From: Escherichia coli | GTDB taxonomy: Bacteria; Pseudomonadota; Gammaproteobacteria; Enterobacterales; Enterobacteriaceae | Assembly: GCF_050320075.1 (NCBI RefSeq) | Contig: NZ_CP190018.1 | DNA: 64,000 nt | Strand: one strand, 5' to 3' | In this document: positions 12,289-39,552 of the stretch, piece after piece | Numbering within the stretch: position 1 is the stretch's first letter | Layout of the letters: every line of letters begins with the position of its first letter | Program-made: the position numbers and the translations under genes | The notes under the pieces: generated by a model | What the model was told of the DNA's origin: nothing | The model's database searches: none | The model's input: only the letters and a program-made list of their open reading frames with translations

Positions 12289-12303
12289 CACAAGGATGGA
12301 TGT

Positions 12304-12690
12304 ATGGGTGTGTATAAGGCAAGACGATTCAGCCAAAGCACGAAAAAACTTGGTATTCACGATAAAGTTCTCATGGCTGCCGCTGAAGAAGTGATGCAGG
12401 GCATATGGGAGGCTGATTTAGGTAGCGGTGTCATCAAAAAACGTTTACCCCTCCAACAAGGAAAGAGTGGTGGAGCCAGAACAATTATCTTTTTTAAATC
12501 AGCAAATCATGTGTTTTTTTATGATGGTTGGTCCAAGAGTGGTCTAAGCAGTAAAGGAACCAAAGAAATCGAAGATGATGAACTGGCGGCCTACAAAAAA
12601 ATGGCAAATGCATTTCTGGCCTTTAGCAATAAGCAAATAGAGGATTTGATCGAAACTGGCTTTTTGATTGAGGTGAAAAATGAGCGATAA
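12304..12690 (+). CDS. RelE/HigB-2-like type II toxin (GKSGGAR motif)
   Basis: 128-aa ORF; motif QQGKSGGARTIIFF resembles recalled HigB-2/RelE-like toxins; precedes and overlaps an HTH antitoxin gene by 11 nt; absent from the K-12 rimO-dgcI interval. Confidence 0.75.
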   Translation: MGVYKARRFSQSTKKLGIHDKVLMAAAEEVMQGIWEADLGSGVIKKRLPLQQGKSGGARTIIFFKSANHVFFYDGWSKSGLSSKGTKEIEDDELAAYKKMANAFLAFSNKQIEDLIETGFLIEVKNER

Positions 12691-13009
12691 ATTACAAATG
12701 ATGCTGGAAGATGCAAAGGAACTGAATGCACTGGGCCTGATGTCTGATAGTGAAGTTGATGCCATTGCCGTCATGGTCAAAGCTCGTGAAGTCAGCGCCC
12801 GTATAGCCAAAGTCAAATCAATGACGGGTGAAGAGATCAAAGCCATCCGCACCCGATACGGCATGTCACAATCCGTGCTGGCACATACAATGGGAATGTC
12901 AAAAGAAAGTGTCTCGAAATGGGAACGAAATGAAATAAAACCGAGCGGCCCGGCACTACGTATTTTGAATACATTGGCAATAAAAGGGCCGGAAGTTTTT
13001 GCAAAGTAA
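12680..13009 (+). CDS. XRE-family HTH antitoxin (HigA-2-like)
   Basis: 109-aa ORF; C-terminal HTH (GMSQSVLAHTMGMSKESVSKWERNEIKPSGPALRILNTL); ATG lies inside the toxin gene 3' end. Confidence 0.75.
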   Translation: MSDKLQMMLEDAKELNALGLMSDSEVDAIAVMVKAREVSARIAKVKSMTGEEIKAIRTRYGMSQSVLAHTMGMSKESVSKWERNEIKPSGPALRILNTLAIKGPEVFAK

Positions 13010-13037
13010 AATGTTTGCAAATGATTTACCACATTCA

Positions 13038-13065
13038 TTAGTACCCCTTGATTAAGGGGTACTAA
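13038..13065. terminator. Hairpin between antitoxin gene and convergent dgcI
   Basis: TTAGTACCCCTT-GATT-AAGGGGTACTAA, ~12-bp stem with 4-nt loop. Confidence 0.55.
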
Positions 13066-13078
13066 CACTATTCTAATT

Positions 13079-14407
13079 CTACTGCCAGCTAATCTGTGCC
13101 CTGCCGTTTTTCTTACTCTTATACAGTCGCTCATCCGCCAGCATTTTCAAGCGTTCAACGGTAGGACATTCATTTGAATGCGCTACACCGATACTGGTGC
13201 TTAAATTAATGCTTCCCACCTGGAAATGAACAATTTCTTTTAGAATCGATAGCAACTCTTCCAGCGTTCCACCCGTATAAATCACCGCAAATTCGTCACC
13301 GCCGAAGCGGTAGACTTTACCTTTATCTACCGGGATCTGTGATTTAAGGATTTTCACCACTTTCATCAACACTTCATCGCCCAGCAAATGACCGAAAGTG
13401 TCGTTGATGTTTTTGAATTTATCGACGTCAAACAGGCACAAATATCCGCCTTTTTCCGGCAGGGCTTTTAAATCTTCGTCAAAGGATTTTCTGCCCATCG
13501 CTTTGGTCAGGTCATCCAGGAACGCCGAGTTATACAGACTGTAGAGTTTTTTGACATCGGCAGCTGAAAAGAAAAGCCCGCCATCCAGTACGCGTTCAAA
13601 ATGGTTATTAATGATGGCTTCTTTCTCCACAATACCACGATTAATCACTCTGCGTACCAGATAGAGGCAACTGACACCCGATATCACTGCCACCAATGCG
13701 GCAAAGAAAATAATCAATGTACAGACCCGCAAATAAACATCTTTTTTATACGCAAATACGTACAATCCGGTCGGCAAATAGGCGAAGTGCTCCATCGCTT
13801 CCGAAACGGTGAAGATGGCGTTTTTAGCATTAAATTCATCACCGGTCACCGGTTTACCGTTCTTAAACAGAGAGAACATCAGGTTCTCGCTATCCATCGC
13901 CAGCGATTTTGACAGTAAAGAAAAACGCTCCAGACCAAGCAAAAATATCAGACTACGATTATGAGTTACCGGATAGAGGTAATAGACGAAGGTTTTACCG
14001 TCAAAAGAGATAAACCCTGTATTTTTGACATGTCGATACTTCACAATCTGCATAATATCTGCACAATAATTTTTCTCGAACTCCTTTACCTGAATACATT
14101 CGTCACTGGAAATCAGATAAGGACCGACATCGTACAAATAAGAGGGTGAAACCGAGTCGGCGTAAGCTGTGCGCAAGCCAACCAACAGCTGTTCCTCCGT
14201 GGGATTTAGCGTGTTGATAAGATCAATTGCCACGCTACGCCGATATTCAGCAATATTTGCCACCGCAAAAGCAGTATCAATAACGGACTGTTTCAGGCCA
14301 TACACCCGTTCCTTTACCATTTGAGTGTAGATCCCGCAGGCAACTGCTGAAATCATGATAAAAATCAGCAGACTGACTGTAAGTACGAACTTATTGATTC
14401 TGGACAT
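13079..14407 (-). CDS. dgcI: Diguanylate cyclase DgcI (YliF)
   Basis: 442-aa ORF with N-terminal TM segments and GGDEF domain (RFGGDEF). Confidence 0.9.
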
Positions 14408-16479
14408 ACGTAAACTACTCTTTTACTAATTTTCCACTTTTATCCCAGGCGGAGAACGGCATGGGTTTCTGGTACAGATACCCCTGAGCCTGAACACATC
14501 CTAATTTGATTAATTCGCGCGCAACGTCTTCGCTCTCTACGCCTTCCGCAATCACCGGGATCCGGTTATAGCGTGCCAGATCGAAAATAATGCGCACAAT
14601 TTTTCCCGCAGTACCGAAAATATCGCCGGTAAATTGTGAGTCCACCTTTATGCTATCTGGATTAATTTCATAAAAACGTTTCAGGTTTGACAAACCGGTG
14701 CCAAAGTCATCAATCGATATCCGTACCCCTTGTTTACGCAGTTGTTCAATATTGAGATAAAAATGTTCATTAATTCGCTCGATCACGGTTTCAGTGATCT
14801 CAACACATAGGCTGTTCGCCTTCAGGCCATTTTCTTTCATGATGGTGGTAAAACGCTCATGAAAGTGTGGTTCGTTTAACTGCCAGGGCGAAACATTAAT
14901 ATGCAGTAAGAAATCATCCTTCAGCGACGCACGCTGACTAAAATGTCTGAATTCACCCATTGCCGTTTTAATAATCTGATAACCCAGCTCATTGATAAAC
15001 CCGATATCTTCAGCAATGGTAATGAACTTTAGCGGTGAAATGATCCCCCGCTCCGCAGACACCCAACGGCACAACGCCTCCGCGCCCAGAATGGCGCGGG
15101 TGTTAATATCAACGATCGGTTGATAGACGAGGAATAGTTCGCCAATTTCCATTGCATGGCGAATATTACGCGCAATCCAGATATTCTCTTCTATTTCGTT
15201 GAGTTTCGCGTCATCACAGAAAATAAACTCTGAGAACATATGGTCACGGATACTGGAAATCGCCAGTTTCAGTTTTTCTGCGTAACTCCAGGCGTTTTCT
15301 CCCTGCAAAGGTTCACAAATGGCAGACTTATGGATGCGCAGATTGCGGTAGCCAAAGCTGCTGTCAAAATCGTTTATCATCGCTATTTTACGGGTAAATG
15401 TCTGTACATTTTCCCGGCACAGAAGTAAATAGAGATCGGCATTGAATGTCACGATATCGCAGCATTGCGCATATTTCTCGGCAATTCGCTGACACAATTT
15501 CCTGACGATTTTATTGCGTTCATCAACACCAAACACCGCTTCCACGGCTTCCAGACCACACAGTTTGATGATCCCCACAGCCAGATACTGATTATTGTTG
15601 GACTCAATAATCGCCATATTTTTAATAAAACCGCTTTCCTGATCGTAAGAGATCAGTGAGAGCAATTTATTTGACCGTTCAATTTCGGCATCTTTCATTT
15701 CCGCGATCGAATTTTTGATGCTGATAATCTCTTTCGCATCGCCTTCGCGAATTTTCAGAGCCTCGATCTGATCCGTTGAGTCGGGCAAAAACGCCAGCGT
15801 ATTAACCAGCTCGGTCATTTCAGAAAATTGCCGACGGAACACACGAGTGGTCATTAAATAAACCACCAGCAATACGATAATAATGAAAGCAAACGGCAGA
15901 TAAAAAAGTTTATCTGATGCGTTCAATAAATTACCGCCAGGATAATAAAAATAGATTTCGAATAATGCGTTGTTTGGCACCGCTGATGTTTTTTCGATAT
16001 ATTCAGTATCGACAGAATCAATAATATTATAATTACCTTCGCTATTATAAATAATCAGTTTTTCACGCGCGAGTTGATTCTTGGCAATGATCTCATGGCC
16101 TTGTTTCAAAAATAGAACTTCATCATTAGCGCTGATTTGATCAAGATACTCGTTCAGATATCGCCAGTTTAAATCGACATGTATTTTATCCACCGCTAAC
16201 AAATCGTGATCTTTGCCGTTGATGCGTAGCGTAAAAGAGATACATTTTTTACCCGGACGATCAAAGCAATTGTAGGCCGGATTCCAGCTGTTGTTAGAGT
16301 CATCTGAAGCCACCGACCATGGTCGTTTCGATGGATTAAAATCGGCAAAAATAACCCGCCCTGACTCGTCGACAAGCGGTCCATTTACTTCTTCCTGATG
16401 ATAAACAACGATTTTATCATTCGCCCTCCGCGAAAAGAGATAATATTTATTATCATCAAGTACCAGTCCCACCGAGTCT

Positions 16480-16487
16480 AAAAATGG
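16480..16487. repeat. IS1 target-site duplication, left copy (AAAAATGG)
   Basis: 8 bp identical to 17256-17263, immediately flanking the IS1 terminal inverted repeats. Confidence 0.7.
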
Positions 16488-16502
16488 GGTAATGACTCCA
16501 AC

Positions 16503-17006
16503 TTATTGATAGTGTTTTATGTTCAGATAATGCCCGATGACTTTGTCATGCAGCTCCACCGATTTTGAGAACGACAGCGACTTCCGTCCCAGCCGTGCCA
16601 GGTGCTGCCTCAGATTCAGGTTATGCCGCTCAATTCGCTGCGTATATCGCTTGCTGATTACGTGCAGCTTTCCCTTCAGGCGGGATTCATACAGCGGCCA
16701 GCCATCCGTCATCCATATCACCACGTCAAAGGGTGACAGCAGGCTCATAAGACGCCCCAGCGTCGCCATAGTGCGTTCACCGAATACGTGCGCAACAACC
16801 GTCTTCCGGAGCCTGTCATACGCGTAAAACAGCCAGCGCTGGCGCGATTTAGCCCCGACGTATCCCCACTGTTCGTCCATTTCCGCGCAGACGATGACGT
16901 CACTGCCCGGCTGTATGCGCGAGGTTACCGACTGCGGCCTGAGTTTTTTAAATGGCGGAAAATCGTGTTGAGGCCAACGCCCATAATGCGGGCAGTTGCC
17001 CGGCAT
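16503..17006 (-). CDS. insB: IS1 transposase InsB (expressed as InsAB' by -1 frameshift)
   Basis: 167-aa ORF, matches recalled IS1 InsB. Confidence 0.9.
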
Positions 17007-17200
17007 CCAACGCCATTCATGGCCATATCAATGATTTTCTGGTGCGTACCGGGTTGAGAAGCGGTGTAAGTGAACTGCAGTTGCCATGTTTTACGGCAGT
17101 GAGAGCAGAGATAGCGCTGATGTCCGGCGGTGCTTTTGCCGTTACGCACCACCCCGTCAGTAGCTGAACAGGAGGGACAGCTGATAGAAACAGAAGCCAC
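16925..17200 (-). CDS. insA: IS1 InsA repressor
   Basis: 91-aa ORF beginning [40 protein letters not shown] (zinc-finger and HTH). Confidence 0.9.
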
Positions 17201-17255
17201 TGGAGCACCTCAAAAACACCATCATACACTAAATCAGTAAGTTGGCAGCATCACC

Positions 17256-17263
17256 AAAAATGG
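17256..17263. repeat. IS1 target-site duplication, right copy (AAAAATGG)
   Basis: Identical to 16480-16487. Confidence 0.7.
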
Positions 17264-17716
17264 CATCATTTCCATTTTAAGGATCACAGCGCGTTGAATC
17301 TCCTCTGTATTTTTTAATAAATACAGTGAGTCCTTTAATGTCAGGGCCGAACGTTCAATATCTTTAAAGAAATAGCCAACGTTTTTCTGAATAAGTTCAA
17401 AGCGGCTATCGGCACGTTTTACCGCGCGTTCCGAAACCAGTTGATAGTTAATGATGAAAAAAAGGCCAATAAATGACAGTGCTGCCAATAAAAATAAAAT
17501 TATCAGCCTTATCTTTATCTTTTCGTATAAACTCAGCATGTTAATACATTTAACAAAATAACTGTCTGAACGCTGTGCCGCTGCAAAAACAGTCCCTTGC
17601 TGCGGCTTTTTAACCAAATTACCCGATTCTACAAAATCAGCAGAAAGTTACAACACTTGCTTAGGGCAATAATTTCCTGTGAGGTGATTACCCTTTCAAG
17701 CAATATTCAAACGTAA

Positions 17717-18628
17717 CTATCCTTTAATTTTCGGATCCAGCGCATCGCGTAAACCATCACCCAACAAATTGAACGCCAGTACAGTCAGAAAAATAGCCAG
17801 GGCCGGAAAAATAGCGACATGCGGCGCGATAACCATATCCGCTCGGGCCTCATTGAGCATTGCACCCCACTCTGGTGTCGGCGGCTGCGCACCGAGGCCG
17901 AGAAATGACAGGCTGGCGGCAGAGATAATCGAGGTACCGATGCGCATGGTGAAAAACACCACGATAGAAGAGACAGTCCCGGGCAAGATATGGCGCAATA
18001 AGATGGTCATGTCGCTGGCACCAATACTGCGCGCCGATTCAATAAAAGTTTGCTGTTTCAACACCAGCGTGTTGCCACGCACCAGACGGGCAAAAGCCGG
18101 AATGGAAAAAATGGCGACTGCAATAATCACGTTAGCAATGCCGCTTCCCAACACCGCAACAACAGCGATCGCCAGTAAAATACCCGGGAAGGCAAACAGC
18201 ACATCGCAAATGCGCATGATCAGCCGATCCCACCAGCCTTCATAATATCCAGCCAGCAAACCCAGCAACGTCCCGATCGCCGCACCGATAAACACGGCAA
18301 ACACGCCCGCCGCCAGCGAGATTTGCGCACCAACCAGGACACGGCTGAAAATGTCACGCCCCAGTGAATCGACGCCAAACCAGTGCTGCAAAGAAGGTCC
18401 GTTATTCAGATTGTCATAATCAAAATAATTTTCGGCGTCATAGGGAACGATCCAACGTGCAAAAATGGCCACCACAATCAATAAAATAACGAATAATGCG
18501 GCGGTCATCGCCATATGCTGACGGCGAAATCGTCGCCAGAATTCATGCCACGGTGTACGTACCTGGTCAGGTTTGACCAGTGGCATGGCGTTTAACACCG
18601 CCTGACGTCGCCAGTTAAATAGTCGCAT
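17717..18628 (-). CDS. gsiD: Glutathione ABC transporter permease GsiD
   Basis: 303-aa ORF, ABC permease. Confidence 0.9.
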
Positions 18629-18630
18629 CC

Positions 18631-19551
18631 TTACTTGTACCTGATAGCCGGGTTAATGGCGGCGTAAAGCACATCCACCACTAAGTTGATAAGAATAAAT
18701 TCCAGCGAGAAAAGCAGAATTTCCGCCTGAATCACCGGGTAATCGCGCATTTCTACGGAGTCAACGAGTAAGCGTCCAAGTCCGGGCCAGTTGAAAACTT
18801 TCTCCACCACGATAGAACCACCGAGCAAAAAGCCAAACTGTAAGCCCATCATGGTCACAACCGGGATCATCGCGTTACGTAGCCCGTGTTTGAGGACAAC
18901 CCAGGTTTCGCTCACCCCTTTCGCCCTCGCGGTACGCATATAATCTTCGCTTAAAACATCGACAAACGACGCGCGGGTAAAGCGCGCCATCACGGCTGCC
19001 ACTGCCGCGCCGAGCGTCAGGGAGGGTAAAATGTAGTGCTGCCAACTGTCTGCTCCCACGGTAGGCAGCCAGCCCAGTTCAACGGAGAATACCTGAATTA
19101 AAAGCATCCCCAGAGCAAATGCCGGAAACGAGATCCCCGACACCGCAATGGTCATACTCAATCGATCCGGCCAACGATTACGCCAGACGGCGGCGATAAT
19201 TCCCGCCGCCATACCAAATATCACCGCCCAGACCATACTGGTTATGGTCAGCCACAGCGTTGGCATAAAGCGGCTGGCAATCTCATCGGCAACCGGACGA
19301 CGCGACACCATCGACAGGCCAAAATCCCCCTGCACAGCATTGCTGATATAGTGCCAGAACTGGTGATACAGCGGCTGATCCAACCCCAGCTGCTGACGCA
19401 CCAGTTCTATAACCTGCGCATCAGCTTCGGGCCCGGCAATCAATCGCGCCGGATCGCCGGGCAGCATATGCACAAATAAAAACACCAGCACCGAGACGAT
19501 AAACAGCGTTGGAATCAACCCCAGTAAGCGTTTGATAACGTAATTAAGCAT
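18631..19551 (-). CDS. gsiC: Glutathione ABC transporter permease GsiC
   Basis: 306-aa ORF, ABC permease. Confidence 0.9.
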
Positions 19552-19568
19552 TCCACTCCCTGCGTTGC

Positions 19569-21107
19569 TTATTGCAAATCCGCGTCTTCAAAGCTGAAAC
19601 CGGTGTCTGGCATGATCCAAAAACCGGTCAGGTTTTTACTGTGTGCCGACACCAGTTTTTCTACCACCAGCGGGATCCACGGCGACTCTTGCCAGATGAT
19701 ATCCTGCGCCGCCTTATATAAACGGGTCTTTTCTGCCGGATCATTAGTTTTCAGTGCCTGAGCCAGGAAGTCATCCACCTGTTTATTGCTGTAAAACGCG
19801 GTATTAAACAGCGTCGGTGGCCAGTTCTGCGAGGCAAACAGCGGCGATAGTGCCCAGTCCGCTTCGCCGGTTGAAGCCGACCAGCCAGTGTAGAACATCC
19901 GCACGCCGCTCTCTTTTTGCCCTTTACCTTCAACTTCTGCCGCCCGCTGTCCGGCATCCATCGCAGTCACCTGGGCTTTAATCCCGACCTGCGCTAACTG
20001 CTGCTGGGTAAATTGCAGCACTTTCTGCGCGGTGCTGTGGTTATGTGACGACCACAGCGTGGTATTGAAACCGTTGGGATATCCCGCCTCTTTCAGTAAT
20101 TCGCGCGCTTTCACTGGATCGTAAGGCCACGGTTTATAACTTTGCGCGTAGGCGATACTCGGCGGTACCACACCAGTAGCTGGCGTTGCATAGCCCGCGA
20201 AGGCCACTTTCACCAGCGCCGGGCGGTTAATGGCGTAATTCAGCGCCTCACGGACCTTCGGGTTATCGAACGGCTTTTGCGTCACGTTCATACTGATATA
20301 ACGCTGCATAATTGACGGACTGGCCATCAACTCGATATTTTTGTTTTTCTCCAGCAGTGCGGCCTGCTCGTAGGGAATGGGGAAAGCAAACTGCGCTTCA
20401 CCGGTTTGCAGCATTGCCGCGCGGGTGTTGTTATCCGCCACCGGACGCCAGGTTATGCTGTCCAGTTTGGGCAATCCTGGCTGCCAGTAACCCGCGAATT
20501 TTTTCACCTTCACAAAATCGGTCTGATTCCAGGTATCCAGTTCATACGGCCCGGTTCCCACCGGATGAAAACCAATCTCCTTGCCATATTTTTCCAGCGC
20601 TGCCGGCGAAATCATCGCGGTCGCCGGATGGGCAAGAATATTAATAAACGCTGAGAACGGCTGTTTGAGGGTAATCTTTACCGTTGTTGGATCGATCGCT
20701 TCCGTTTTGGCAATATTCTTATACAGGTTGTAGCGTTTAAGATGATTCGCCGGATCGCTGGCCCGGTCCAGATTCGCTTTTACCGCCGCTGCGTTGAAAT
20801 CGGTGCCATCCTGGAATTTAATTCCTTCCCGCAATTTCACGGTGTATGTAAGGCCGTCATCGGAAACGGTATAACTCTCCGCCAGCACGTTTTTCAGTTT
20901 CATCTCTTTATCCAGACCAAACAGCCCCTGGTAAAACGATTTCGCTACGGCCTGAGATAACGTGTCATTTGCGTCATACGGATCGAGCGTGGTGAAGTTC
21001 GATCCTACCGCCACCACCACATCTTTGGCAGCGAATGCACAAGATGCCATCAACGCTGTCGCAATGCCCAGCGCCACTAACCCACTACGGTGTACAGCTC
21101 TTGCCAT
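19569..21107 (-). CDS. gsiB: Glutathione-binding periplasmic protein GsiB
   Basis: ORF 19569..21374; start at internal ATG (21105-21107) giving 512 aa with signal peptide [26 protein letters not shown]. Confidence 0.9.
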
Positions 21108-21126
21108 TTTATTCTCCGCCTGAATG

Positions 21127-22998
21127 TTATCTACGCATGAATGCGTATTCTGATTGTGGTTGTGCGACGTAATGCCCCGGCCCGACGCATTGCAACGAGA
21201 CGGCTGCCACCTCTTCGCCACGCAGATGAATATTGCTGGGAAGATCGTCCGACAGCAGTACACGCTGCGGTCGTTGTCGGGACGGTTCAGCGACCGGAAC
21301 TGCCGCCAGTAATTTACGCGTATAAGGATGCTGCGGGTTTTCGAAGACCGCGCGCCGTGGACCAATTTCAACAATTTGTCCGAGATACATCACCGCCACA
21401 CGATGACTAATCCGCTCTACCACGGCCATATCGTGGGAGATAAACAGATACGCAATGCCGAAATCACGCTGGAGATCGAGCAACAAGTTGATAATCTGCC
21501 CGCGAATAGAAACATCCAGCGCCGAGACGGCTTCGTCGGCAATGATCACTTTTGGATTCAATGCCAACGCGCGAGCAATGCAGATGCGCTGGCGCTGACC
21601 GCCGGAAAACTCATGCGGGTAACGCCAGGCATGTTCAGGTAACAGGCCCACGCGCTCCAGCAACCACGCAACGCGTGCAGCCGCTTCTTTACCTGTCAAT
21701 AAACCGTGTACGCGCAGCGGTTCGATAATCGAATCACCGATGGTCTGACGTGGGTCCAGCGAAGCGTAAGGGTCCTGAAAAATAAACTGAATATCCCGGC
21801 GCAATGCCTGAAGTTTGCCGGGTGACAAGGTATCGATTCGCTGACCGTTAAAGATAATTTCGCCGCCCTGCGATTCGACCAGGCGCAGCAACGCCCGCCC
21901 GGTAGTGGATTTACCGCTGCCAGACTCGCCCACCAGCGATAGCGTTTCGCCAGGCCAGAGATCAAAACTGACTTTCTCAACGGCATGCACTTCCCGCGTT
22001 ACGCGATTCAACAAACCGCTGCGCAAAGGGAAACGGGTGACCAGATTACGCACCCGTAAAACAGGTTCGCCATCCACCACCGTTTTCTGCTCGATGGGTG
22101 GTTCCTGTTTCGCTGGATGTTCAAGCGATATCAATGGGAAACGTCGGGGATAATCTAACCCTTTCATCGCACCAAGTTGCGGAACAGCAGCTAACAGCGC
22201 ACGGGTGTAAGGATGTTGCGGTGCATGAAAAATCTGTTCGACGCTACCCGTTTCCACCGCCTCGCCCTGATACATCACCAGTACCCGATCGGCAATCTCT
22301 GCCACCACGCCCATATCGTGAGTGATAAAGATAACGCCCATCGACATCTCTTTTTGCAATACTTTGATTAATTGCAGGATCTGCGCCTGAATAGTGACAT
22401 CCAGCGCGGTGGTTGGCTCATCGGCAATCAGCACCGCCGGGCGGCATGACAGCGCCATCGCAATCATCACTCGCTGGCGCATCCCGCCAGAGAGTTGATG
22501 CGGATAACGTGAAAGAATGGTTTGTGCCTCCGGAATGCGTACCTGATCCAGCATCCGCTTCGCCTCGACCATCGCTTCTTCACGACTGGCGTTCTGATGC
22601 AGACGAATTGATTCGGCAATCTGTTCACCCACAGTAAATACCGGGTTCAGCGATGTCATCGGTTCCTGAAATATCATCGCCATATCCGCACCGCGCACAT
22701 GGCGCATTTGTGCAGCGCTCTGCTCGCTAAGTTCAATCACTTCGCGACTGCGCCGCCGCAACAGCATTTGATCGCACTGCACTAAACCGCCCGCCTGTTC
22801 CAACAAGCGCATCAATGCCAGCGCAGTCACTGACTTACCAGAGCCGGATTCGCCAACAATTGCCAGCGTCTCACCGCGTTGCAGGCTAAAAGAGAGATTG
22901 CGGACCGCAGCTATTTTCTGCTGGTCCTGCATAAAGGCAATATTCAGATTTTCAACCGCCAGCACATCACCGGCATCAAGTTCATCACTGTGTGGCAA
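21127..22998 (-). CDS. gsiA: Glutathione ABC transporter ATPase GsiA (two ABC domains)
   Basis: ORF 21127..23106; start assigned to in-frame TTG (22996-22998) to match the recalled N-terminus (M)PHSDELD, 623 aa; two Walker A motifs (GESGSGKS). Confidence 0.8.
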
Positions 22999-31467: not shown

Positions 31468-32733
31468 ATGGCTTCTACTTTTACCAGCGACACATTGCCT
31501 GCCGATCACAAAGCAGCTATCCGTCAGATGAAGCACGCGCTGCGGGCGCAGCTTGGCGACGTCCAGCAGATCTTTAATCAGCTAAGCGATGACATTGCCA
31601 CGCGAGTGGCTGAAATCAACGCACTCAAAGCACAGGGCGATGCCGTCTGGCCGGTGCTGTCTTATGCCGATATCAAAGCAGGTCATGTTACTGCAGAGCA
31701 GCGCATACAGATTAAACGTCGCGGTTGTGCGGTGATAAAAGGCCATTTCCCCCGCGAACAAGCGCTAGGCTGGGATCAGTCGATGCTGGACTATCTGGAC
31801 CGCAACCGCTTTGACGAGGTCTACAAAGGCCCCGGCGATAATTTCTTCGGGACGCTCAGCGCTTCACGTCCCGAGATTTACCCCATCTACTGGTCGCAGG
31901 CGCAAATGCAGGCTCGCCAGAGTGAAGAAATGGCGAATGCGCAGTCGTTTCTCAATCGTCTGTGGACATTTGAAAGTGATGGAAAGCAATGGTTTAACCC
32001 GGATGTGAGCGTCATCTACCCTGACCGTATCCGCCGCCGTCCGCCCGGAACGACCTCCAAAGGTCTTGGAGCGCATACCGACTCCGGGGCACTGGAACGC
32101 TGGCTGCTTCCAGCGTATCAGCGCGTTTTCGCCAACGTCTTTAATGGCAATCTGGCGCAATATGATCCCTGGCATGCGGCACATCGTACGGAAGTTGAAG
32201 AGTACACGGTGGACAACACCACCAAATGTTCCGTGTTTCGGACATTCCAGGGCTGGACAGCGCTCTCTGATATGCTGCCTGGTCAGGGGCTGCTGCACGT
32301 CGTGCCCATTCCTGAAGCCATGGCGTACGTACTGTTACGTCCGCTGCTTGATGATGTGCCGGAGGATGAACTGTGCGGCGTAGCGCCCGGAAGAGTATTG
32401 CCGGTATCAGAGCAATGGCATCCACTGTTGATTGAGGCGTTAACCAGCATTCCAAAACTCGAAGCCGGAGACTCCGTCTGGTGGCACTGCGACGTCATCC
32501 ATTCCGTTGCCCCCGTTGAAAATCAACAGGGCTGGGGCAACGTGATGTACATTCCTGCGGCACCGATGTGCGAGAAAAATCTTGCCTACGCGCACAAGGT
32601 GAAGGCCGCACTGGAAAAAGGCGCATCGCCGGGCGACTTCCCGCGCGAGGACTATGAAACAAACTGGGAAGGACGCTTTACGCTTGCCGACCTCAACATT
32701 CACGGTAAGCGAGCGTTGGGAATCGACAGCTGA
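31468..32733 (+). CDS. ybiU: DUF1479-family protein YbiU
   Basis: ORF 31462..32733; ATG 31468 (MASTFTSDTLPADHK); 421 aa. Confidence 0.85.
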   Translation: MASTFTSDTLPADHKAAIRQMKHALRAQLGDVQQIFNQLSDDIATRVAEINALKAQGDAVWPVLSYADIKAGHVTAEQRIQIKRRGCAVIKGHFPREQALGWDQSMLDYLDRNRFDEVYKGPGDNFFGTLSASRPEIYPIYWSQAQMQARQSEEMANAQSFLNRLWTFESDGKQWFNPDVSVIYPDRIRRRPPGTTSKGLGAHTDSGALERWLLPAYQRVFANVFNGNLAQYDPWHAAHRTEVEEYTVDNTTKCSVFRTFQGWTALSDMLPGQGLLHVVPIPEAMAYVLLRPLLDDVPEDELCGVAPGRVLPVSEQWHPLLIEALTSIPKLEAGDSVWWHCDVIHSVAPVENQQGWGNVMYIPAAPMCEKNLAYAHKVKAALEKGASPGDFPREDYETNWEGRFTLADLNIHGKRALGIDS

Positions 32734-33803
32734 GTGTCGTACAGCCCTTCCCGTTCCACGGCGGTGTTCCCTTTTCCTGGGCGAACCCGCCGCACTGACT
32801 CCCGCACCGCCAATCGTCCGTGCAGCAGCAGCGAGCCCACCGGAGCATCCGGGCGAATCAGCCGCTGTTGCAACATTTGCACCGCTTCATTGCCTAGCTC
32901 ATCGCGTGGCACATGCACAGCCGTCAGGGGAACATCCTCGATTGCCGCAAGGTTAAAGCCGTCGATACTCATCACCGAGACATCCTGTGGTACGCGCAGA
33001 CCACGACGATGTAGCGCATTTACCGTTCCCGCCGCCATAAAATCCCCGCCGACCAGAAACGCCGTCGGCAACGTCTTGCCATTGGCGGCATCCAGCCACG
33101 CTCCGACCTTTTCTTCCGCTTCTTTAGCGCTAAAACTGCTGATATTCAGCAAATGACGGTCATGGTGAAAGGCCAGATTATGCTGACGCCATGATTCTTT
33201 AATCCCTGCAAACCGCTGCTCCATAGTGTAGCGGCGCAGGCACATCACATTCATCACCTCCCGGTGACCCATTTCAAACAGATAGCGGGCGGCGAACGCG
33301 CCAATTAACCGATGGTCCGGCGCAATCGCCGGGAGGCGCATTCGTTCATCACGGCAGTTGATCAGCACACAAGGCTTAGCGAGATCGGCGGCCAGATCAT
33401 GGATGTGCGGATCGTCAATCCCCAGCAGGATCGCCGCCTGCGTATCTGCTTCATTCATTCGCGAGAGAAATAGCGCGGGATCGCTGTCAAACTCCTCCAG
33501 CGCGCAGTAACGCAGCCGCACTTCATGCGGCGATAACGCTTTGCTGATGCTCTGGATCACACGGTAATAAAAGATATCAGATCGTTGGTCAAAAGCGCGT
33601 TGCGGCGCGAAAATAATCAGGTTGTTCAGCAACATACGACCTGCTGCCATGCCATCCATCACGCCCAACTCACGCGCGCAGGCCAGCACCTGTTCGCGAG
33701 CGCGTGCACTGGTATTCGCTTTGCCAGCCAGCACCCGCGAAACCGTACTCGGCGATAGCCCGGTACGTGCGGCGATATCGGCGATTTTCAGCTTCTTGTC
33801 CAT
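32700..33803 (-). CDS. LacI/GalR-family transcriptional regulator (accessory island)
   Basis: ORF 32700..33881; start set at ATG 33801-33803 (MDKKLKIADIAARTGLSPSTVSRVLAG, N-terminal HTH); periplasmic-binding-like effector domain; last ~11 codons are antisense to the ybiU 3' end; not present between ybiU and ybiT in K-12. Confidence 0.8.
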   Translation of the reverse strand: MDKKLKIADIAARTGLSPSTVSRVLAGKANTSARAREQVLACARELGVMDGMAAGRMLLNNLIIFAPQRAFDQRSDIFYYRVIQSISKALSPHEVRLRYCALEEFDSDPALFLSRMNEADTQAAILLGIDDPHIHDLAADLAKPCVLINCRDERMRLPAIAPDHRLIGAFAARYLFEMGHREVMNVMCLRRYTMEQRFAGIKESWRQHNLAFHHDRHLLNISSFSAKEAEEKVGAWLDAANGKTLPTAFLVGGDFMAAGTVNALHRRGLRVPQDVSVMSIDGFNLAAIEDVPLTAVHVPRDELGNEAVQMLQQRLIRPDAPVGSLLLHGRLAVRESVRRVRPGKGNTAVEREGLYDTQLSIPNARLP

Positions 33804-34097
33804 TTTGTGATCTGCCTCTAATTCGGAAATGACAGAATTTTCATGAGCAAAAAAGCCCATTCTGTCTGGCATTAAATCCATTTCAGTAATGTATATCAGT
33901 CACTCATGGAAAAACGTGCACAAAACCCGCTTTCTTTCGCTTTTAGGGTCTCTTACTGTGAATTGGTAGAACAACTTCCATACAAAAATAATGGAAAAAC
34001 GAACAATAAAGACTTTATTTATCAAAAAGTTAAAAGTGGTGTGACAACTCCATTCTGACGTTGCCACACAAACCCTATACCATTCTGTGGAGTGCAT

Positions 34098-35399
34098 ATG
34101 AGTCAGGGTATCAATAACGATATGACTGCCAGTAAACCGCGCCATATCGTCAAAAATCTGCGTTGGTGGATACTGGTCCTTTTTTTGCTCGGTGTTACTG
34201 TCAACTACATCACGCGTAACTCGCTGGGTATTCTCGCCCCCGAACTGAAAAGCAACCTGGGGATTACCACCGAACAATATTCCTGGATTGTAGGTGCTTT
34301 CCAGCTCGCCTATACCCTATTCCAACCGTTGTGTGGATGGCTGATTGACGTCATTGGCCTCAAACTGGGCTTTATGATCTGCGCGGGACTGTGGGCGCTG
34401 GCCTGTCTGATGCATGCGGGGGCGGGAAACTGGGTACATCTGGCGCTGTTGCGCTTCTTTATGGGCGGTGCGGAAGCCGCGGCAACCCCAGCAAACGCCA
34501 AAACCATCGGTGAATGGTTTCCAAAATCAGAACGCCCGATCGCCGCAGGCTGGGCAGGCGTCGGTTTTTCCATCGGTGCCATGCTGGCCCCACCGATTAT
34601 CTATTTTGCCCACGCTTCATTCGGCTGGCAGGGTGCATTTATGTTCACTGGCATCCTGGCGATGCTGTGGGTGGTGCTGTGGTGGGCGTTCTATCACAAC
34701 CCGGATAAGCATCCGAACCTCAGCAAAGCCGAGCTGGACTTTATCCGCCAGGATAACGAAGCGCCCCCGATTAAATTACCCTTTCTGACCGCACTGAAAA
34801 CCGTGGGCAAAAATAAACGCTTTTACGGTATCGCTATCCCGGCCTTTATGGCAGAACCGGCGTGGGCGGTGATGAGTTTCTGGGTGCCGCTATACCTGTC
34901 CAAAACCTATGGCATGGACCTGAAGCAGATCGCATTATTCGCCTGGTTGCCGTTCCTCGCCGCTGATCTTGGCAGTATTGCCAGCGGCTATCTGACCAAA
35001 CTTTACACCCGCCTGTTTGGGCTGAGTCGTGTGAACTCCGTTGTCGCATCATCGGTCAGTGGCGCATTCTTGATGGTTTCGCTGGCGGTGATGGCCTTTA
35101 CCAATAACCCGTATATCGCCATCGTCCTTATTTCCATCGGCGGCTTCGGTCACCAGATCATCTCCTGCATGCTGAGCGCACTGGTGGTGGAATCCTTCGA
35201 CAAAGGTCAGATGGCCACTGTTAACGGCATGCGCGGTTCTGCCGCGTGGATCGCAAGTTTCCTGTTCTCCCTGATTATCGGGGTTACCGCTGACAAAATC
35301 GGCTTTAACCCCCTGTTTATCGCCATGGGCTTCTTTGACCTGATTGGCGCTTTCTTCCTGGTCACCTTTATTGCTGAACGTCGCGCAAAACGCGCCTGA
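34098..35399 (+). CDS. MFS transporter, anion:cation symporter family (ExuT/DgoT-like)
   Basis: ORF 34092..35399; ATG 34098 preceded by GTGGAG SD; 12-TM MFS; strong similarity pattern to recalled ExuT (e.g. TRN, FQPLCGWLIDVIG, GGAEAA, EWFP, FAWLPFLAADLG). Confidence 0.8.
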   Translation: MSQGINNDMTASKPRHIVKNLRWWILVLFLLGVTVNYITRNSLGILAPELKSNLGITTEQYSWIVGAFQLAYTLFQPLCGWLIDVIGLKLGFMICAGLWALACLMHAGAGNWVHLALLRFFMGGAEAAATPANAKTIGEWFPKSERPIAAGWAGVGFSIGAMLAPPIIYFAHASFGWQGAFMFTGILAMLWVVLWWAFYHNPDKHPNLSKAELDFIRQDNEAPPIKLPFLTALKTVGKNKRFYGIAIPAFMAEPAWAVMSFWVPLYLSKTYGMDLKQIALFAWLPFLAADLGSIASGYLTKLYTRLFGLSRVNSVVASSVSGAFLMVSLAVMAFTNNPYIAIVLISIGGFGHQIISCMLSALVVESFDKGQMATVNGMRGSAAWIASFLFSLIIGVTADKIGFNPLFIAMGFFDLIGAFFLVTFIAERRAKRA

Positions 35400-35413
35400 G
35401 AGTGGATGTAAAC

Positions 35414-37777
35414 ATGAAAACGCTGAAAAACTGGACCCTGCACAAACAGTCTGCCCACCACGTTGAACTGCTGGTCGATGGCCAGCATATCCTGTGCCTG
35501 TACGTGCTGGAAGAAAATCTGTTCCGCGTGCTGTTAAAACGCAAAGGCGAGCTGGCGCTGGATCGCACCTGGAGCATTGCTCCGGCGCAGGATGTGCCAT
35601 GGGAAGGGCGCAGCCGCGAAGATCTCAGCGGCTTTAGCCTGCCCGCGTGGACATTGATCCAGCACGACGACACCGTGGTTATCGCCACCGAGTCACTGCG
35701 TGCCACCGTTCACCAGCCGCTGTGGCTGGAGTGGCACTATCGTAACAACGAAGGCGAATGGCTGCCGTTGGTGAATGACCGCCCGACCAGCGCTTATCTG
35801 CTGAATGCCCACGGCGATGGCGTGGCACACTATCAGAGCCGTCGTAAAGATGAACGCTTTTATGGCCTCGGAGATAAAGCCGGCGACCTGCAACGCAACG
35901 GTAAACGTTACGAGATGCGTAACCTCGACGCGATGGGCTACAACGCCGTTAGTACTGACCCGCTGTACAAACACATTCCATTCACCATCACCCGCCGCGA
36001 TGACATTAGCTTCGGCCTGTTTTATGACAACCTCAGCAGCTGCTGGCTGGATCTGGGCAACGAGATCGACAACTACCACACCGCCTATCGCCGCTGGCAG
36101 GCGGAAGCGGGTGATATCGACTACTACCTGTTTACCGGCGAACGCGTACTTGATATCACCAAAGCCTTCGTACGCCTGACCGGCAAAACCCTGTTCGGAC
36201 CGAAATGGAGCCTGGGCTACAGCGGTTCAACTATGCACTACACCGATGCGCCGGACGCACAAAATCAGTTGATGAACTTTATCCGCCTGTGTGAAGAACA
36301 TGCGATTCCCTGCGATTCGTTCCAGCTCTCTTCCGGTTATACCTCAATTAACGGCAAGCGCTATGTGTTCAACTGGAATTACGACAAAGTGCCGCAGCCG
36401 AAAGTGATGAGCCAGGCATTTCACAATGCTGGTTTGCACCTGGCCGCCAATATCAAGCCGTGCCTGTTGCAGGATCACCCACGCTATAACGAAGTGGCAG
36501 AAAGAGGACTGTTCATCCGTGATTCAGAAACAGATGAACCAGAACGTTCCAGCTTCTGGGATGACGAAGGTTCTAACCTCGACTTTACTAATCCGCAGAC
36601 CATCCAGTGGTGGCAGGAAGGCGTGACCACACAGCTTCTGGAGATGGGTATCGACTCCACCTGGAACGACAACAACGAATTCGAAGTATGGGACGGTGAA
36701 GCACGCTGTCACGGCTTTGGTCAGACGATCGCGATCAAACATATTCGCCCGGTGATGCCACTGCTGATGATGCGAGCCTCGATGGAAGCCCAGCAACGTT
36801 TCGCTCCGGAAAAACGTCCGTACTTGATCTCCCGCTCCGGCTGCGCGGGAATGCAGCGCTATGTGCAGACCTGGAGCGGCGATAACCGCACTAGCTGGGA
36901 CACTCTGCGCTACAACACCCGCATGGGTCTGGGGATGAGCCTCTCCGGGCTGTATAACCTCGGTCACGACGTCGGCGGTTTCTCCGGTGATAAGCCGGAC
37001 CCGGAACTGTTTGTACGCTGGGTACAAAACGGCGTGATGCATCCGCGCTTTACGATTCACTCGTGGAACGATGACCATACCGTAAACGAACCGTGGATGT
37101 ATCCGGGCGTCACTCCGGCGATCCGCAGCGCTATTGAGTTGCGCTATCGCCTGCTGCCCTACTTTTATACCCTGATGTGGCAGGCATACGCCGATGATGA
37201 ACCAATGCTGCGTCCGACTTTCCTTGACCACGAGCACGACGTTCAGACTTTTGAAGAGTGTGATGACTTCCTGCTTGGTCGCGATATTTTGGTTGCCAGC
37301 GTCGTAGAGCAAGGCGAGCGCCAGCGCCGTGTATGGCTGCCAGATAACGAAACTGGCTGGTACGATTTCTACAACGGCGAATGGTTCAGTGGCGGTCAGT
37401 GGATCACCCTCGACGCACCGCTGGAGAAACTGCCGCTGATGGTGCGTGCCGGGGCTGGTCTACCGCTCAGCAAACGCATCACCTATGTGAGCGCAGAACA
37501 AGACGATACCCGCGAACTGAAACTGTTCCCGCTGAAAGGTGTGGGCACAACGTCCGGCCTGCTGTTTGAAGACGATGGCGAAAGCTGGGGCTACCAAACT
37601 GGTAATGCGCTTTGGGTGGAATGGGAAATGGTTTGCGATGGGGCGACCATCAACCTGAAAGTCAACGCGCGCGGGGATTATCGACCTGCATGGAGTGCAC
37701 TGAAAGTGTCATTACCAGTGGAAGAAAAACGCACGCTGCTGGTCAATGGTGTTGAAGGGAGTGAATGGATGCGTTAA
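35414..37777 (+). CDS. Glycoside hydrolase family 31 enzyme (alpha-glucosidase-like), specificity unknown
   Basis: ORF 35402..37777; ATG 35414; GH31 signature regions WNDNNEF (nucleophile region, cf. WIDMNE), QTWSGDNRTSW (acid/base region), GHDVGGF. Confidence 0.8.
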   Translation: MKTLKNWTLHKQSAHHVELLVDGQHILCLYVLEENLFRVLLKRKGELALDRTWSIAPAQDVPWEGRSREDLSGFSLPAWTLIQHDDTVVIATESLRATVHQPLWLEWHYRNNEGEWLPLVNDRPTSAYLLNAHGDGVAHYQSRRKDERFYGLGDKAGDLQRNGKRYEMRNLDAMGYNAVSTDPLYKHIPFTITRRDDISFGLFYDNLSSCWLDLGNEIDNYHTAYRRWQAEAGDIDYYLFTGERVLDITKAFVRLTGKTLFGPKWSLGYSGSTMHYTDAPDAQNQLMNFIRLCEEHAIPCDSFQLSSGYTSINGKRYVFNWNYDKVPQPKVMSQAFHNAGLHLAANIKPCLLQDHPRYNEVAERGLFIRDSETDEPERSSFWDDEGSNLDFTNPQTIQWWQEGVTTQLLEMGIDSTWNDNNEFEVWDGEARCHGFGQTIAIKHIRPVMPLLMMRASMEAQQRFAPEKRPYLISRSGCAGMQRYVQTWSGDNRTSWDTLRYNTRMGLGMSLSGLYNLGHDVGGFSGDKPDPELFVRWVQNGVMHPRFTIHSWNDDHTVNEPWMYPGVTPAIRSAIELRYRLLPYFYTLMWQAYADDEPMLRPTFLDHEHDVQTFEECDDFLLGRDILVASVVEQGERQRRVWLPDNETGWYDFYNGEWFSGGQWITLDAPLEKLPLMVRAGAGLPLSKRITYVSAEQDDTRELKLFPLKGVGTTSGLLFEDDGESWGYQTGNALWVEWEMVCDGATINLKVNARGDYRPAWSALKVSLPVEEKRTLLVNGVEGSEWMR

Positions 37778-37784
37778 ATCATTA

Positions 37785-37819
37785 CCGGGGCCGGGAGGCG
37801 ACTGCGCCTTACCCGGTCC
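37785..37819. repeat. REP-like element at the island/ybiT boundary
   Basis: GCCGGGAGGCGACTGCGCCTTACCCGGTCC resembles the REP consensus GCCGGATGCGGCGTGAACGCCTTATCCGGCC. Confidence 0.35.
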
Positions 37820-37956
37820 AGCCATCGAATCCTTTACCTCAGTATTTCACGCTGCAGGAAGGCAGCAAACCTGTAAACCCCGGGAGCTTAAATAAGTAAG
37901 TGACCGGGGTGAACAGGTGAAGCCAATGCATCTGCCGCATGAAAGACGGCGGGAAA

Positions 37957-39552
37957 TTAACCGTCGATCCCTTTACTACGCAGGTAATCTTCGTAATTAC
38001 CGCTAAAGTCGATCACGCGTTCCGGGGTGATTTCCAGAATTCGGGTCGCCAGGGAGCTTACAAACTCACGGTCGTGAGACACAAAGATCAGCGTGCCCTG
38101 ATACAGTTCCAGCGCCATGTTCAGCGACTCAATAGATTCCATATCCAGGTGGTTGGTCGGTTCGTCCATGATCAGAATGTTCGGCTTCTGCATCATTAAC
38201 TTACCAAACAGCATCCGCCCTTTTTCTCCACCGGAAAGCACTTTCGCTGGCTTTTTGATGTCGTCCTGGCTGAACAGCAAACGACCGAGAATGCTGCGTA
38301 CCGCCTGCTCATCATCGCCTTCCTGCTTCCACTGGCTCATCCATTCGAACACGGTCAGATCATTTTCAAACTCATATTCGTGGTCCTGGGCGTAGTAACC
38401 AATGCGTGCGTTTTCAGACCATTTTACGGTGCCGCTGTCCGGTTGCAGATCGCCCACCAGCGTTTTCAGCAGCGTTGATTTACCGACGCCGTTGGTACCC
38501 AGTACAGCCAGTTTTTCACCCACTTCCAGCAGCAGGTTGAGATTTTTAAACAGTGGACCGTTATCAAACCCTTTGGTCAGACCTTCCACTTCCAGCGCGT
38601 TACGGAACAGTTTCTTATCCTGTTCAAAACGGATGAACGGGTTCTGACGGCTGGAGGCTTTCACCTCTTCCAGTTTGATTTTATCAATCTGGCGCGCGCG
38701 CGAAGTTGCCTGGCGAGATTTCGAGGCGTTGGCGCTAAAGCGGCTAACGAAAGATTGCAGCTCAGCAATCTGCGCTTTCTTCTTGGCGTTATCAGCCAGC
38801 AGACGCTCACGCGCCTGGGTCGCCGCCGTCATGTACTCATCGTAGTTACCTGGATAAACGCGCAGCTCGCCGTAATCCAGATCCGCCATGTGGGTACAAA
38901 CCATGTTAAGGAAGTGACGGTCGTGCGAGATGATGATCATGGTGCTGTCACGCTCGTTCAGCACCTGTTCCAGCCAACGAATGGTGTCGATGTCGAGGTT
39001 GTTGGTCGGTTCGTCGAGCAGGAGAATGTCTGGATCAGCAAACAGCGCCTGCGCCAGCAGCACACGCAGCTTCCAGCCAGGAGCAACTTCACTCATCGGG
39101 CCGTAGTGCTGTTCCACTGGAATTCCCACGCCAAGCAACAGTTCACCGGCGCGAGCTTCCGCAGAGTAACCGTCCATTTCGCCGTATTTCACTTCCAGAT
39201 CGGCCACTTTATAGCCGTCTTCTTCACTCATTTCCGGCAAAGCATAGATGCGGTCACGCTCCTGTTTCACTTCCCACAACTCTTTATGCCCCATGATCAC
39301 CGTATCCAACACAGTGAACTCTTCAAAGGCAAACTGATCCTGACGCAGCTTACCAATGCGCTCGTTGGGATCGAGGGAAACGTTACCCAACGTCGGCTCT
39401 AAGTCGCCGCCGAGGATCTTCATAAAGGTGGATTTACCACTACCGTTCGCGCCAATCAGGCCGTAACGGTTGCCGCCGCCAAATTTGACGGAAATGTTTT
39501 CAAACAACGGCTTACTGCCGAACTGCATGGTGACGTTACTGGAAACTAACAC
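37957..39552 (-). CDS. ybiT: ABC-F family ATPase YbiT
   Basis: 531-codon ORF with two ABC domains ([18 protein letters not shown]); start codon GTG as given by the ORF track, exact start uncertain. Confidence 0.85.

Follow-up and report, generated by a model that had tools for sequence, protein, structure and literature searches.

A LacI-type regulator, an ExuT-like transporter and a GH31 glycosidase between ybiU and ybiT of Escherichia coli: a probable module for the uptake of an anionic alpha-glycoside and the release of D-glucuronate

Introduction

What do the three genes that separate ybiU from ybiT in some Escherichia coli strains do, and how did they come to be there? In a 64,000-nucleotide stretch of E. 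coli DNA (NCBI RefSeq assembly GCF_050320075.1, contig NZ_CP190018.1), hereafter called the window, these genes encode a LacI-family regulator, a transporter of the major facilitator superfamily (MFS) and a glycosidase of family GH31. A sequence-only reading of the window had stated that ybiU and ybiT are adjacent in K-12, and the K-12 sequence agrees with it: in that strain the two genes are direct neighbours, with a 240-bp spacer that holds a pair of repetitive extragenic palindromic (REP) elements. According to the same reading, the three genes formed an accessory island that might serve the uptake and hydrolysis of an anionic alpha-glycoside whose identity could not be told from sequence. 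We examined both the function and the origin of the locus by comparative genomics. The results are best explained if the three genes make up a small catabolic module that is complete in itself and has stood between ybiU and ybiT since the ancestry of the Enterobacteriaceae. The module would probably take up a small anionic alpha-glycoside and hydrolyse it in the cytoplasm, yielding D-glucuronate.

Results

Gene neighbourhoods of the GH31 orthologues

The genes that surround orthologues of the glycosidase were compared in a sample of 80 loci (85 in the whole set), with orthologues of 58-90% identity found among 100,044 species genomes. Neighbouring open reading frames (ORFs) were called and clustered, the key clusters were named by NCBIfam models, and the neighbour families given a name are the more frequent ones. 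In 84 of the 85 loci, the gene directly upstream of GH31 encodes either an ExuT-like MFS transporter (72 loci) or the DctQM permease of a TRAP transporter, which comes with a DctP binding protein. The TRAP-linked lineages are Vibrio, Marinomonas, four Pasteurellaceae genera, Pseudovibrio and Pannonibacter. Their binding protein finds its best matches in the structures 4N15, 4N91 and 4MHF, all of which are glucuronate/hexuronate-binding proteins (PMC7660916).

Around 20 loci, from at least six families, have no LacI gene, and there the GH31 gene lies inside a glucuronate operon. These loci belong to Erwinia, Pantoea, Izhakiella, Zophobihabitans, Aeromonas, Vibrio, Marinomonas, four Pasteurellaceae genera, Pseudovibrio, Pannonibacter and Stappia. 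The neighbours include the glucuronate isomerase UxaC (NF002794, 680 bits), the mannonate dehydratase UxuA (TIGR00695, 678 bits; some loci have an SDR-type mannonate oxidoreductase instead) and the fructuronate reductase UxuB, which scores 740 bits with NF011611 (cut-off 603) and 187 bits with the tagaturonate reductase model. KdgK, Eda and a UxuR-like regulator are found beside GH31 as well. In Vibrio ruber the order is dctQM-GH31-uxuB-uxaC-kdgK-eda, with all genes in one direction. The galacturonate-specific genes uxaA and uxaB were not seen among the GH31 neighbours, and the genes present are those of the glucuronate branch.

The association extends to more distant members of the clade. At 40% identity, one locus (L101) has a uxaC-uxuB-eda-kdgK-GH31 operon and a divergent gene for an enolase-superfamily (MR_MLE) protein that may be a mannonate dehydratase of the ManD type. 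At 41% identity (L098), a homologue of uronate dehydrogenase (3RFT, 160 bits) is followed by an ABC transporter and GH31; uronate dehydrogenase belongs to a non-homologous, oxidative route. A third locus (L102, 46% identity) has uxaC and a PfkB kinase gene adjacent, and in Paraburkholderia (48%) the pair of ExuT-like MFS and GH31 genes is retained. The L102 cluster (9001-21547) has a different make-up: an AraC regulator gene precedes GH31, a GH63-like (GDE_C/MGH1-like) hydrolase, a PIG-L deacetylase and a GPH-type MFS transporter, and the cluster adjoins uxaC, Lar_N, SDR, 6PGD-like and PfkB genes.

The transporter

The transporter gene of the window occupies positions 34098-35399 on the plus strand. 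By homology its product is a paralogue of ExuT and belongs to the ExuT subgroup of the anion:cation symporter (ACS) family of the MFS. With K-12 ExuT it shares 43% identity and 64% similarity over 414 residues (E 7e-120), it matches the DgoT structure 6E9N from residue 21 to residue 426, the full 12-helix core (136 bits), and its best NCBIfam model is TIGR00893 (D-galactonate/ACS) with 267.6 bits, below the cut-off of 395. All three matches uphold the earlier placement of this protein among ExuT/DgoT-like ACS transporters. From the "DR" pair of DgoT the Arg is kept (YITRNS) and the Asp is replaced by Thr, as in ExuT, which is a carrier of free glucuronate and galacturonate. Homology and adjacency to GH31 make this protein the presumed importer of the glycoside.

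The GH31 enzyme and its active site

The glycosidase gene (35414-37777, plus strand) encodes 787 residues (WP_000854250.1), and the protein is predicted to be cytoplasmic, no signal peptide being evident by eye. Its Pfam architecture is canonical for GH31 (PF13802, PF01055 with E 4.6e-88, PF21365 and DUF5110). The AlphaFold model has a predicted local distance difference test (pLDDT) value of 92.9, and its top folds in the PDB are all GH31 (Foldseek template modelling scores 0.82-0.87). The family assignment made earlier from the WNDNNE nucleophile region, here residues 417-422, is borne out. The closest solved GH31 structures share about 26% identity with the protein, the best relatives being glucosidase II and a dextranase; no solved structure of a member of its own clade was among the PDB matches. 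Scores with the NCBIfam models of characterized types are low: 305.4 bits for MalA against a cut-off of 800, 229.5 for the alpha-xylosidase YicI against 606, and 138 for PRK10426 (YihQ-type) against 553. Databases call the protein an alpha-glucosidase or an alpha-xylosidase, and all names given in AFDB50 were assigned automatically.

When 1.84 billion representative proteins were searched, the clade proved to be large and to extend down to about 35% identity. It can be told from ordinary alpha-glucosidases by four motifs, LSSGY for LDIDYM, N-I-K-P for I-I-D-P, WNDNNE for WNDMNE and PRFxIHSW for PFFRNHS; the hallmark residues are S306-S307-G308, N346-x-K348, N420 and R545. The nucleophile D419 and the acid/base D490 (GDN) are invariant in 161 clade sequences; their counterparts in alignments are the nucleophile and acid/base of glucosidase II and, in YihQ, D405 and D472. 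The clade ranges over enterobacteria, pseudomonads, vibrios, Pasteurellaceae, Burkholderiales, actinobacteria, firmicutes, algae and early fungi. AFDB50 members with 33-43% identity come from green algae (Klebsormidium, Elliptochloris), a haptophyte (Emiliania), a red alga (Galdieria), Mucoromycota and chytrids.

In the -1 site of human GAA, 1-deoxynojirimycin (DNJ) is contacted by D404, D518, R600, D616 and H674, and W376, I441, W516, M519, W613 and F649 pack against it (PMC5653652). When these positions were carried over to the window enzyme by motif alignment, D404 corresponded to S306, I441 to N346 and M519 to N420, and the neighbouring beta-4 Asp corresponded to K348. The seven other mapped pocket residues are kept, namely the catalytic Asp pair and, beside it, R474, H549, W417, W487 and F523; W376 was not mapped. 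N346, K348 and N420 are invariant in the 85 orthologues and in 76 distant clade members, and position 306 is Ser in 85 of 85 orthologues and Gly in 7 of the 76 distant members. We infer from this mapping that the -1 pocket would have lost an acidic group and two hydrophobic contacts, and gained an Asn-x-Lys motif and a further Asn. The loss of the acidic residue and the gain of Asn-x-Lys are what the binding of a C6 carboxylate would need. In the GH2 beta-glucuronidases, an NxK motif orients glucuronic acid (PMC10162664).

Two other sets of residues were inspected. Arginines R169 and R492 are specific to the orthologues, and R492 aligns two residues after the acid/base. As carboxylate ligands they were rejected, because R492 does not track the transporter type: the position is Tyr in the MFS-linked Paraburkholderia protein and Arg in one ABC-linked protein. 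The sulfoquinovosidase motif Q/E-R-W-Y is formed in YihQ by Q288, R301, W304 and Y508 (PMC12780224). In a manual alignment Q288 falls on G308/S306, W304 on F319 and Y508 on F523, and R316 may correspond to the sulfonate-binding R301, so that at most one of the four motif residues is kept.

Regulation of the module

Two types of predicted operator sites lie upstream of the divergent transporter and regulator genes. The LacI-family gene (minus strand) was delimited from a promoter alignment of 13 Enterobacteriaceae genera, in which conservation of the repressor starts at the ATG at 33803 (MDKKLKIADIAARTG...). The coding sequence would then span 32700-33803 and the product would probably be 367 residues long; the RefSeq (PGAP) start at 33860, which gives 386 residues, is probably 19 codons too far upstream. 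The protein matches the NCBIfam models of RbsR, CytR and PurR over their full length with 113-94 bits, far below the equivalog cut-offs, and Pfam LacI and Peripla_BP_1/3 domains were recorded on its orthologues. By these domains the window repressor is assigned to the LacI/GalR family.

About 25 bp upstream of the repressor start codon, a conserved block of the promoter alignment contains the palindrome AATGACAGAATTTTCAT (33828-33844), which does not have the usual central CG. Its consensus AATGAAAGAATTTTCAT, searched with at most two mismatches, occurs once per locus and at the same position in about 32 loci with a LacI gene; the conserved element can also be written AATGA(A/C)AGAATTTTCAT. 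The consensus is absent from the loci that have a GntR regulator instead, bar one off-position match (L081). The palindrome is likely the operator of the LacI-family protein, and we treat it as a candidate site. It falls inside the annotated 5' extension of the repressor gene (33804-33860).

The second type of site concerns ExuR. A pattern, AAKTKGTRTRAYAANTW, was drawn from three related sites, all in the uxaC-exuT and exuT-exuR spacers of K-12. At no more than one mismatch it matches exactly twice in the 64-kb window, as against 0.06 matches expected, and none of 100 shuffles reached two. Both matches, with one mismatch each, lie on the plus strand inside the 295-bp promoter of the transporter-GH31 operon. 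Box A (AATTGGTAGAACAACTT, 33961-33977) overlaps the -35 hexamer of a weak sigma-70-like site (33963-33992), and box B (AAGTGGTGTGACAACTC, 34034-34050) is 48 bp upstream of the transporter start codon. In 14 further Enterobacterales loci, too, the same box precedes the transporter gene. In K-12 the pattern also finds the uxaB promoter and gives no match at the uxuA promoter, which indicates boxes of the ExuR type rather than of the UxuR type. The transporter promoter accordingly appears to carry two ExuR-type operators, as predicted sites. Another ExuR consensus, TTGGT-N2-ACCAA, gave no match at exuT and was discarded as wrong for E. coli.

Origin of the locus

The module is flanked on the left by ybiU (DUF1479 protein; 31468-32733, plus strand), identified from the ORF list and from an identical locus annotated in RefSeq, and on the right by ybiT (ABC-F ATPase; 37957-39552, minus strand; NF011646, 1066.8 bits, above the cut-off). 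The 5.4-kb segment was found in 575 of 5426 complete E. coli genomes (about 10.6%), and K-12 is without it. This patchy presence is what speaks for an accessory island that the lineage of the strain gained horizontally at a site between ybiU and ybiT. The other observations are against such an origin, which we hold to be quite improbable. The same arrangement, ybiU-LacI-MFS-GH31-ybiT, is found in Klebsiella, Enterobacter, Citrobacter, Salmonella enterica subsp. diarizonae, Kluyvera, Leclercia, Raoultella, Kosakonia, Pluralibacter, Silvania and Pseudocitrobacter, and in Cronobacter, Cedecea, Buttiauxella and Mangrovibacter the module adjoins ybiT, without ybiU. The three proteins are 76-93% identical to their counterparts in other genera, a divergence equal to that of the flanking YbiU and YbiV (75-93%). 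Within E. coli, the GH31 gene was present in 577 of the 5426 complete genomes, always on the chromosome and never on a plasmid, in a single copy in nearly all of them, and the copies fall into discrete, core-like identity bands (100, 99.7, 99.3 and 98.6%).

Several E. coli strains show the module in decay. In strain HS-02 (L103, 2326-5618) a remnant persists between ybiU and ybiT, with all three genes turned into pseudogenes: the LacI and MFS genes are frameshifted and have internal stops, and GH31 is reduced to a 5' fragment of 90.7% identity. In strain Z0117EC0056 (H26), the GH31 gene is split by a copy of the insertion sequence (IS) IS1A. The K-12 type corresponds to a clean deletion, and in some strains of this type (H4, H8, H9) IS621, of the IS110 family, sits inside the REP spacer that joins ybiU to ybiT. 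The interval takes a third form in the ST131 strain 4433 (L093, 5982-8589), where ybiU is gone too and ybiV stands directly beside ybiT; this larger deletion was found in strains that match the query by 37 bases of ybiT only.

Identical synteny across genera, a divergence like that of the flanks, chromosomal identity bands and a pseudogenized remnant together indicate that K-12 lost the genes. Most simply, then, the three genes would be an old Enterobacteriaceae locus in the course of loss from E. coli, not an acquired island, and recombination through the conserved flanks may have restored them in individual lineages. The description as an accessory island that adds three genes to this strain is not supported. 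The earlier reading had opposed to itself a common core locus with a known function; the first part of that description holds, the locus being common and core-like in many genera, and the second does not, no function being on record. The locus is a case in which an apparently strain-specific island is an ancestral locus under loss, and the stages of this loss are visible within one species: intact, IS-disrupted, pseudogenized, deleted, and deleted together with ybiU.

The alignment of the window with K-12 diverges in the last four ybiU codons (around 32722) and rejoins at the ybiT stop codon. Because ybiU and the LacI-family gene converge and share 34 bases at their 3' ends (32700-32733), the deletion in K-12 must have re-created the final four ybiU codons. 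YbiU ends in GIDS in the window and in GMDV in K-12. In the GH31-ybiT spacer (37778-37956), a stretch shortly after the GH31 stop (approximately 37795-37825, ...GCGCCTTACCCGG...) can be aligned with the true REP pair that K-12 has in its spacer. It is degenerate and single, and the REP-like element announced at the right boundary is confirmed only in part. In several other genera the GH31-ybiT junction carries small lineage-specific insertions (L011, L016, L022, L029), and in Cronobacter sakazakii (L009, 13111-15255) a filamentous-haemagglutinin/TPS-domain gene is inserted there.

A horizontally acquired island would be marked by mobility genes, tRNA or repeat borders, deviant composition and a patchy phylogeny independent of the flanks, and the locus does not answer to this description. 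The tRNA search found no tRNA in the region, and neither the ORF list (80 residues and above) nor the RefSeq annotation contains an integrase or an IS at the locus, in accordance with what the earlier reading had said of its edges. The GC content equals that of the flanks, with no anomaly apart from the AT-rich promoter spacer. No Rfam family reached its gathering score within 32000-39000, and PADLOC found no defence family.

Discussion

The scenario that we propose for the module is as follows. The ExuT-paralogous MFS symporter would import a small anionic alpha-glycoside, which the cytoplasmic GH31 enzyme would hydrolyse by the retaining two-Asp mechanism, D419 acting as nucleophile and D490 as acid/base; the two residues are in place and the activity is predicted. 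Hydrolysis would release D-glucuronate, as the gene context in many lineages suggests, and D-glucuronate would enter the chromosomal UxaC-UxuB-UxuA-KdgK-Eda pathway, of which uxaC, uxuA and uxuB are present in K-12 and kdgK and eda are well established in E. coli. Expression would be repressed by the LacI-family protein at the palindrome AATGAcAGAATTTTCAT and by ExuR at the two boxes, the sites being present and the binding and inducers being putative. Three lines of evidence converge on D-glucuronate as, very probably, the released product: the embedding of GH31 among uxaC, uxuB, uxuA, kdgK and eda, the hexuronate-type MFS and TRAP transporters, and the ExuR-type boxes of the window. All the evidence fits the uptake and hydrolysis of an anionic alpha-glycoside, as first supposed. 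The accompanying statement that the substrate could not be told from sequence is overtaken by comparative genomics with regard to the product.

Which side of the glycosidic bond carries the glucuronate is a separate matter. If glucuronate occupies the -1 subsite, as the clade-wide changes of the -1 pocket suggest, GH31 would be an alpha-D-glucuronidase. We favour this assignment and give it an even chance. It draws on the link with uronate genes throughout the clade together with the altered -1 pocket, on the nature of the changes, which are of the type expected for a C6 carboxylate, and on compact operons that hold no genes for a second sugar. Candidates for the aglycone are glycerol (from glucuronosyl-diacylglycerol lipids), myo-inositol (from the head groups of plant and fungal sphingolipids) and xylose (from aldouronates). 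In Zophobihabitans entericus (L089, 12476-15376), genes for a glycerol dehydrogenase (534 bits) and a dihydroxyacetone kinase (722 bits) lie directly 3' of GH31 on the same strand, and in Aeromonas (L069) a weaker GlpK-like kinase match stands beside uxaC.

Several points weigh against this picture. Every functional step of the module is inferred. For some distant members the contigs, short for the most part, show no uronate genes; one locus (L100) combines a LacI gene with an ABC transporter and has no uronate genes, and two other loci on short metagenome contigs are uninformative. Both transporter types resemble carriers of free hexuronates, and they might simply carry glucuronate. The mapping of the pocket comes from sequence motifs only, and an orientation of K348, N346, N420 and R316 towards C6 is putative. 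R169 and R492 belong to regions that we take to line the +1 subsite of GAA, and there they would fit glucuronate as the aglycone. The ExuR pattern is partly circular, since the K-12 promoters were examined after the window sites had been noticed, although K-12 alone supplied its letters. Lastly, alpha-glucuronosyl-glycerol is hinted at by a single genome and the weaker Aeromonas kinase.

The explanation that best survives besides an alpha-glucuronidase places glucuronate on the other side of the bond. GH31 would then remove a non-glucose alpha-linked sugar (for example glucosamine or N-acetylglucosamine, mannose or galactose) from X-alpha-(1->n)-glucuronate (GlcA), derived for instance from fragments of heparosan-like polymers or from plant sphingolipid head groups, and the transporters would recognize the glucuronate at the reducing end. 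We consider this unlikely, although the same uronate gene context applies to it. The orthologue-specific arginines in the presumed +1 region would suit it, as would the homology of the transporters with carriers and binding proteins of free hexuronates; in addition, the GH63-like hydrolase and the PIG-L-type deacetylase of L102 suggest a more complex, amino-sugar-containing glucuronoside in that locus. Against it, the compact operons (L086, L101) hold genes of the glucuronate pathway and none for a second sugar, R492 does not follow the anion-type transporter, as described above, and if the glycone were neutral or cationic, it would be difficult to account for an invariant Lys together with a lost Asp in the -1 pocket. 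Nor is there an obvious ubiquitous substrate of the X-alpha-GlcA type.

An ordinary neutral-sugar GH31, such as a maltase, an alpha-1,3-glucosidase or an alpha-xylosidase, that merely stands beside a second hexuronate carrier would make the co-location mechanistically meaningless. The database names and the best solved relatives, glucosidase II and a dextranase, point in this direction. However, the enzyme scores far below the cut-offs of the MalA, YicI and PRK10426 models, has only about 26% identity to any solved GH31, and has three glucose-binding -1 residues of GAA replaced clade-wide, while the adjacency to a transporter in 84 of 85 loci involves two unrelated transporter types and several taxonomic orders; this explanation is very improbable.

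Recognition of sulfonate has evolved at least twice in GH31, as the YihQ type and the SqgH type (PMC12780224). With this precedent, and with R316 as a possible counterpart of YihQ R301, a sulfoquinovosidase-like enzyme or a phospho- or sulfo-sugar glycosidase was envisaged, but we give it hardly any credit, as the rest of the Q/E-R-W-Y motif is replaced, no sulfoglycolysis genes were seen among the named, more frequent neighbour families whereas glucuronate genes recur, and E. coli already has yihQ elsewhere. The SqgH-type sulfoquinovosidase itself belongs to a different clade, with GH31_3 and GH31_6 in the tree of PMC12780224.

Should the enzyme prove to be an alpha-glucuronidase, GH31 would gain a new activity. 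A function would also be given to a clade that is labelled "alpha-glucosidase" in thousands of genomes of Klebsiella, Enterobacter, Serratia, Cronobacter, Erwinia, Pectobacterium, Pseudomonas syringae and Vibrio. The nutrient source would be alpha-glucuronides from the lipids and glycans of plants, algae and bacteria, and about one in ten E. coli strains would still be able to use them, which may matter for differences between gut and plant niches. A bolder extension holds that the whole LSSGY/NxKP/WNDNNE clade consists of alpha-D-glucuronidases whose main natural substrate is alpha-glucuronosyl-glycerol, which forms the head group of glucuronosyl-diacylglycerol, a phosphate-sparing lipid. In this wide form the proposal is speculative and, in our opinion, doubtful. 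If true, it would describe a carboxylate counterpart of the breakdown of sulfoquinovosyl-glycerol by YihQ, and a widespread, unrecognized recycling route for an abundant membrane lipid of plants, algae and bacteria.

The literature that we searched contained no report pairing GH31 with alpha-glucuronidase activity, no characterized member of this clade and no catabolic route for glucuronosyl-glycerol. The parts of the module are of known kinds, namely a GH31 enzyme, an ACS-type MFS transporter, a LacI repressor and control by ExuR, and it is the predicted specificity that would be new for GH31. The known alpha-glucuronidases are found in GH67, in GH115 and in the NAD-dependent GH4 enzyme of Thermotoga. 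The substrates of GH67 and GH115 are fragments of 4-O-methyl-glucuronoxylan, and the Thermotoga enzyme is cytoplasmic and encoded among hexuronate genes. These enzymes share with the window GH31 the activity proposed for it, whereas their folds and families are unrelated. The GH2 beta-glucuronidase (UidA/GUS) likewise yields glucuronate for the same pathway, and its NxK motif recalls N346-x-K348 of the window clade; its anomeric specificity is opposite and its family unrelated, so that the likeness of the motifs is an analogy.

Also related to the window locus is the ExuT/ExuR system of E. coli, which offers a transporter 43% identical to that of the window and the model for the two promoter boxes. 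Unlike ExuT, the window paralogue is tied to a glycosidase and has an extra, local LacI-family repressor. The GH31 alpha-glucosidases (glucosidase II alpha, GAA, MalA) and the dextranase FjDex31A have the same four-domain fold and the same catalytic Asp pair. They differ from the window enzyme, besides the low identity of about 26%, in the pocket, where Ser, Asn, Asn and Lys stand for D404, I441, M519 and the beta-4 Asp, and in the context, which for the window clade is one of anion transporters and uronate catabolism and not of maltodextrin or glycan processing. The yih cluster with YihQ (GH31_13) is a parallel in organization: a cytoplasmic GH31 with the same two catalytic Asp residues and a dedicated importer gene adjacent feeds a pathway for a monosaccharide acid, the substrate being an alpha-glycoside with an anion at C6, as is predicted for the window enzyme. 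If the aglycone of the latter is glycerol, the same logic would apply to another anionic lipid head group, glucuronosyl-glycerol in the place of sulfoquinovosyl-glycerol. The two systems differ in that YihQ belongs to another GH31 clade, as the PRK10426 score indicates, and three of its four Q/E-RWY residues are not kept in the window enzyme, in that the window importer is an ExuT-type MFS protein and not a YihO-type GPH protein, and in that the neighbouring pathway is that of glucuronate and not sulfoglycolysis. An independent evolution of anion recognition within GH31 has precedents in the two types of sulfoquinovosidase (PMC12780224).

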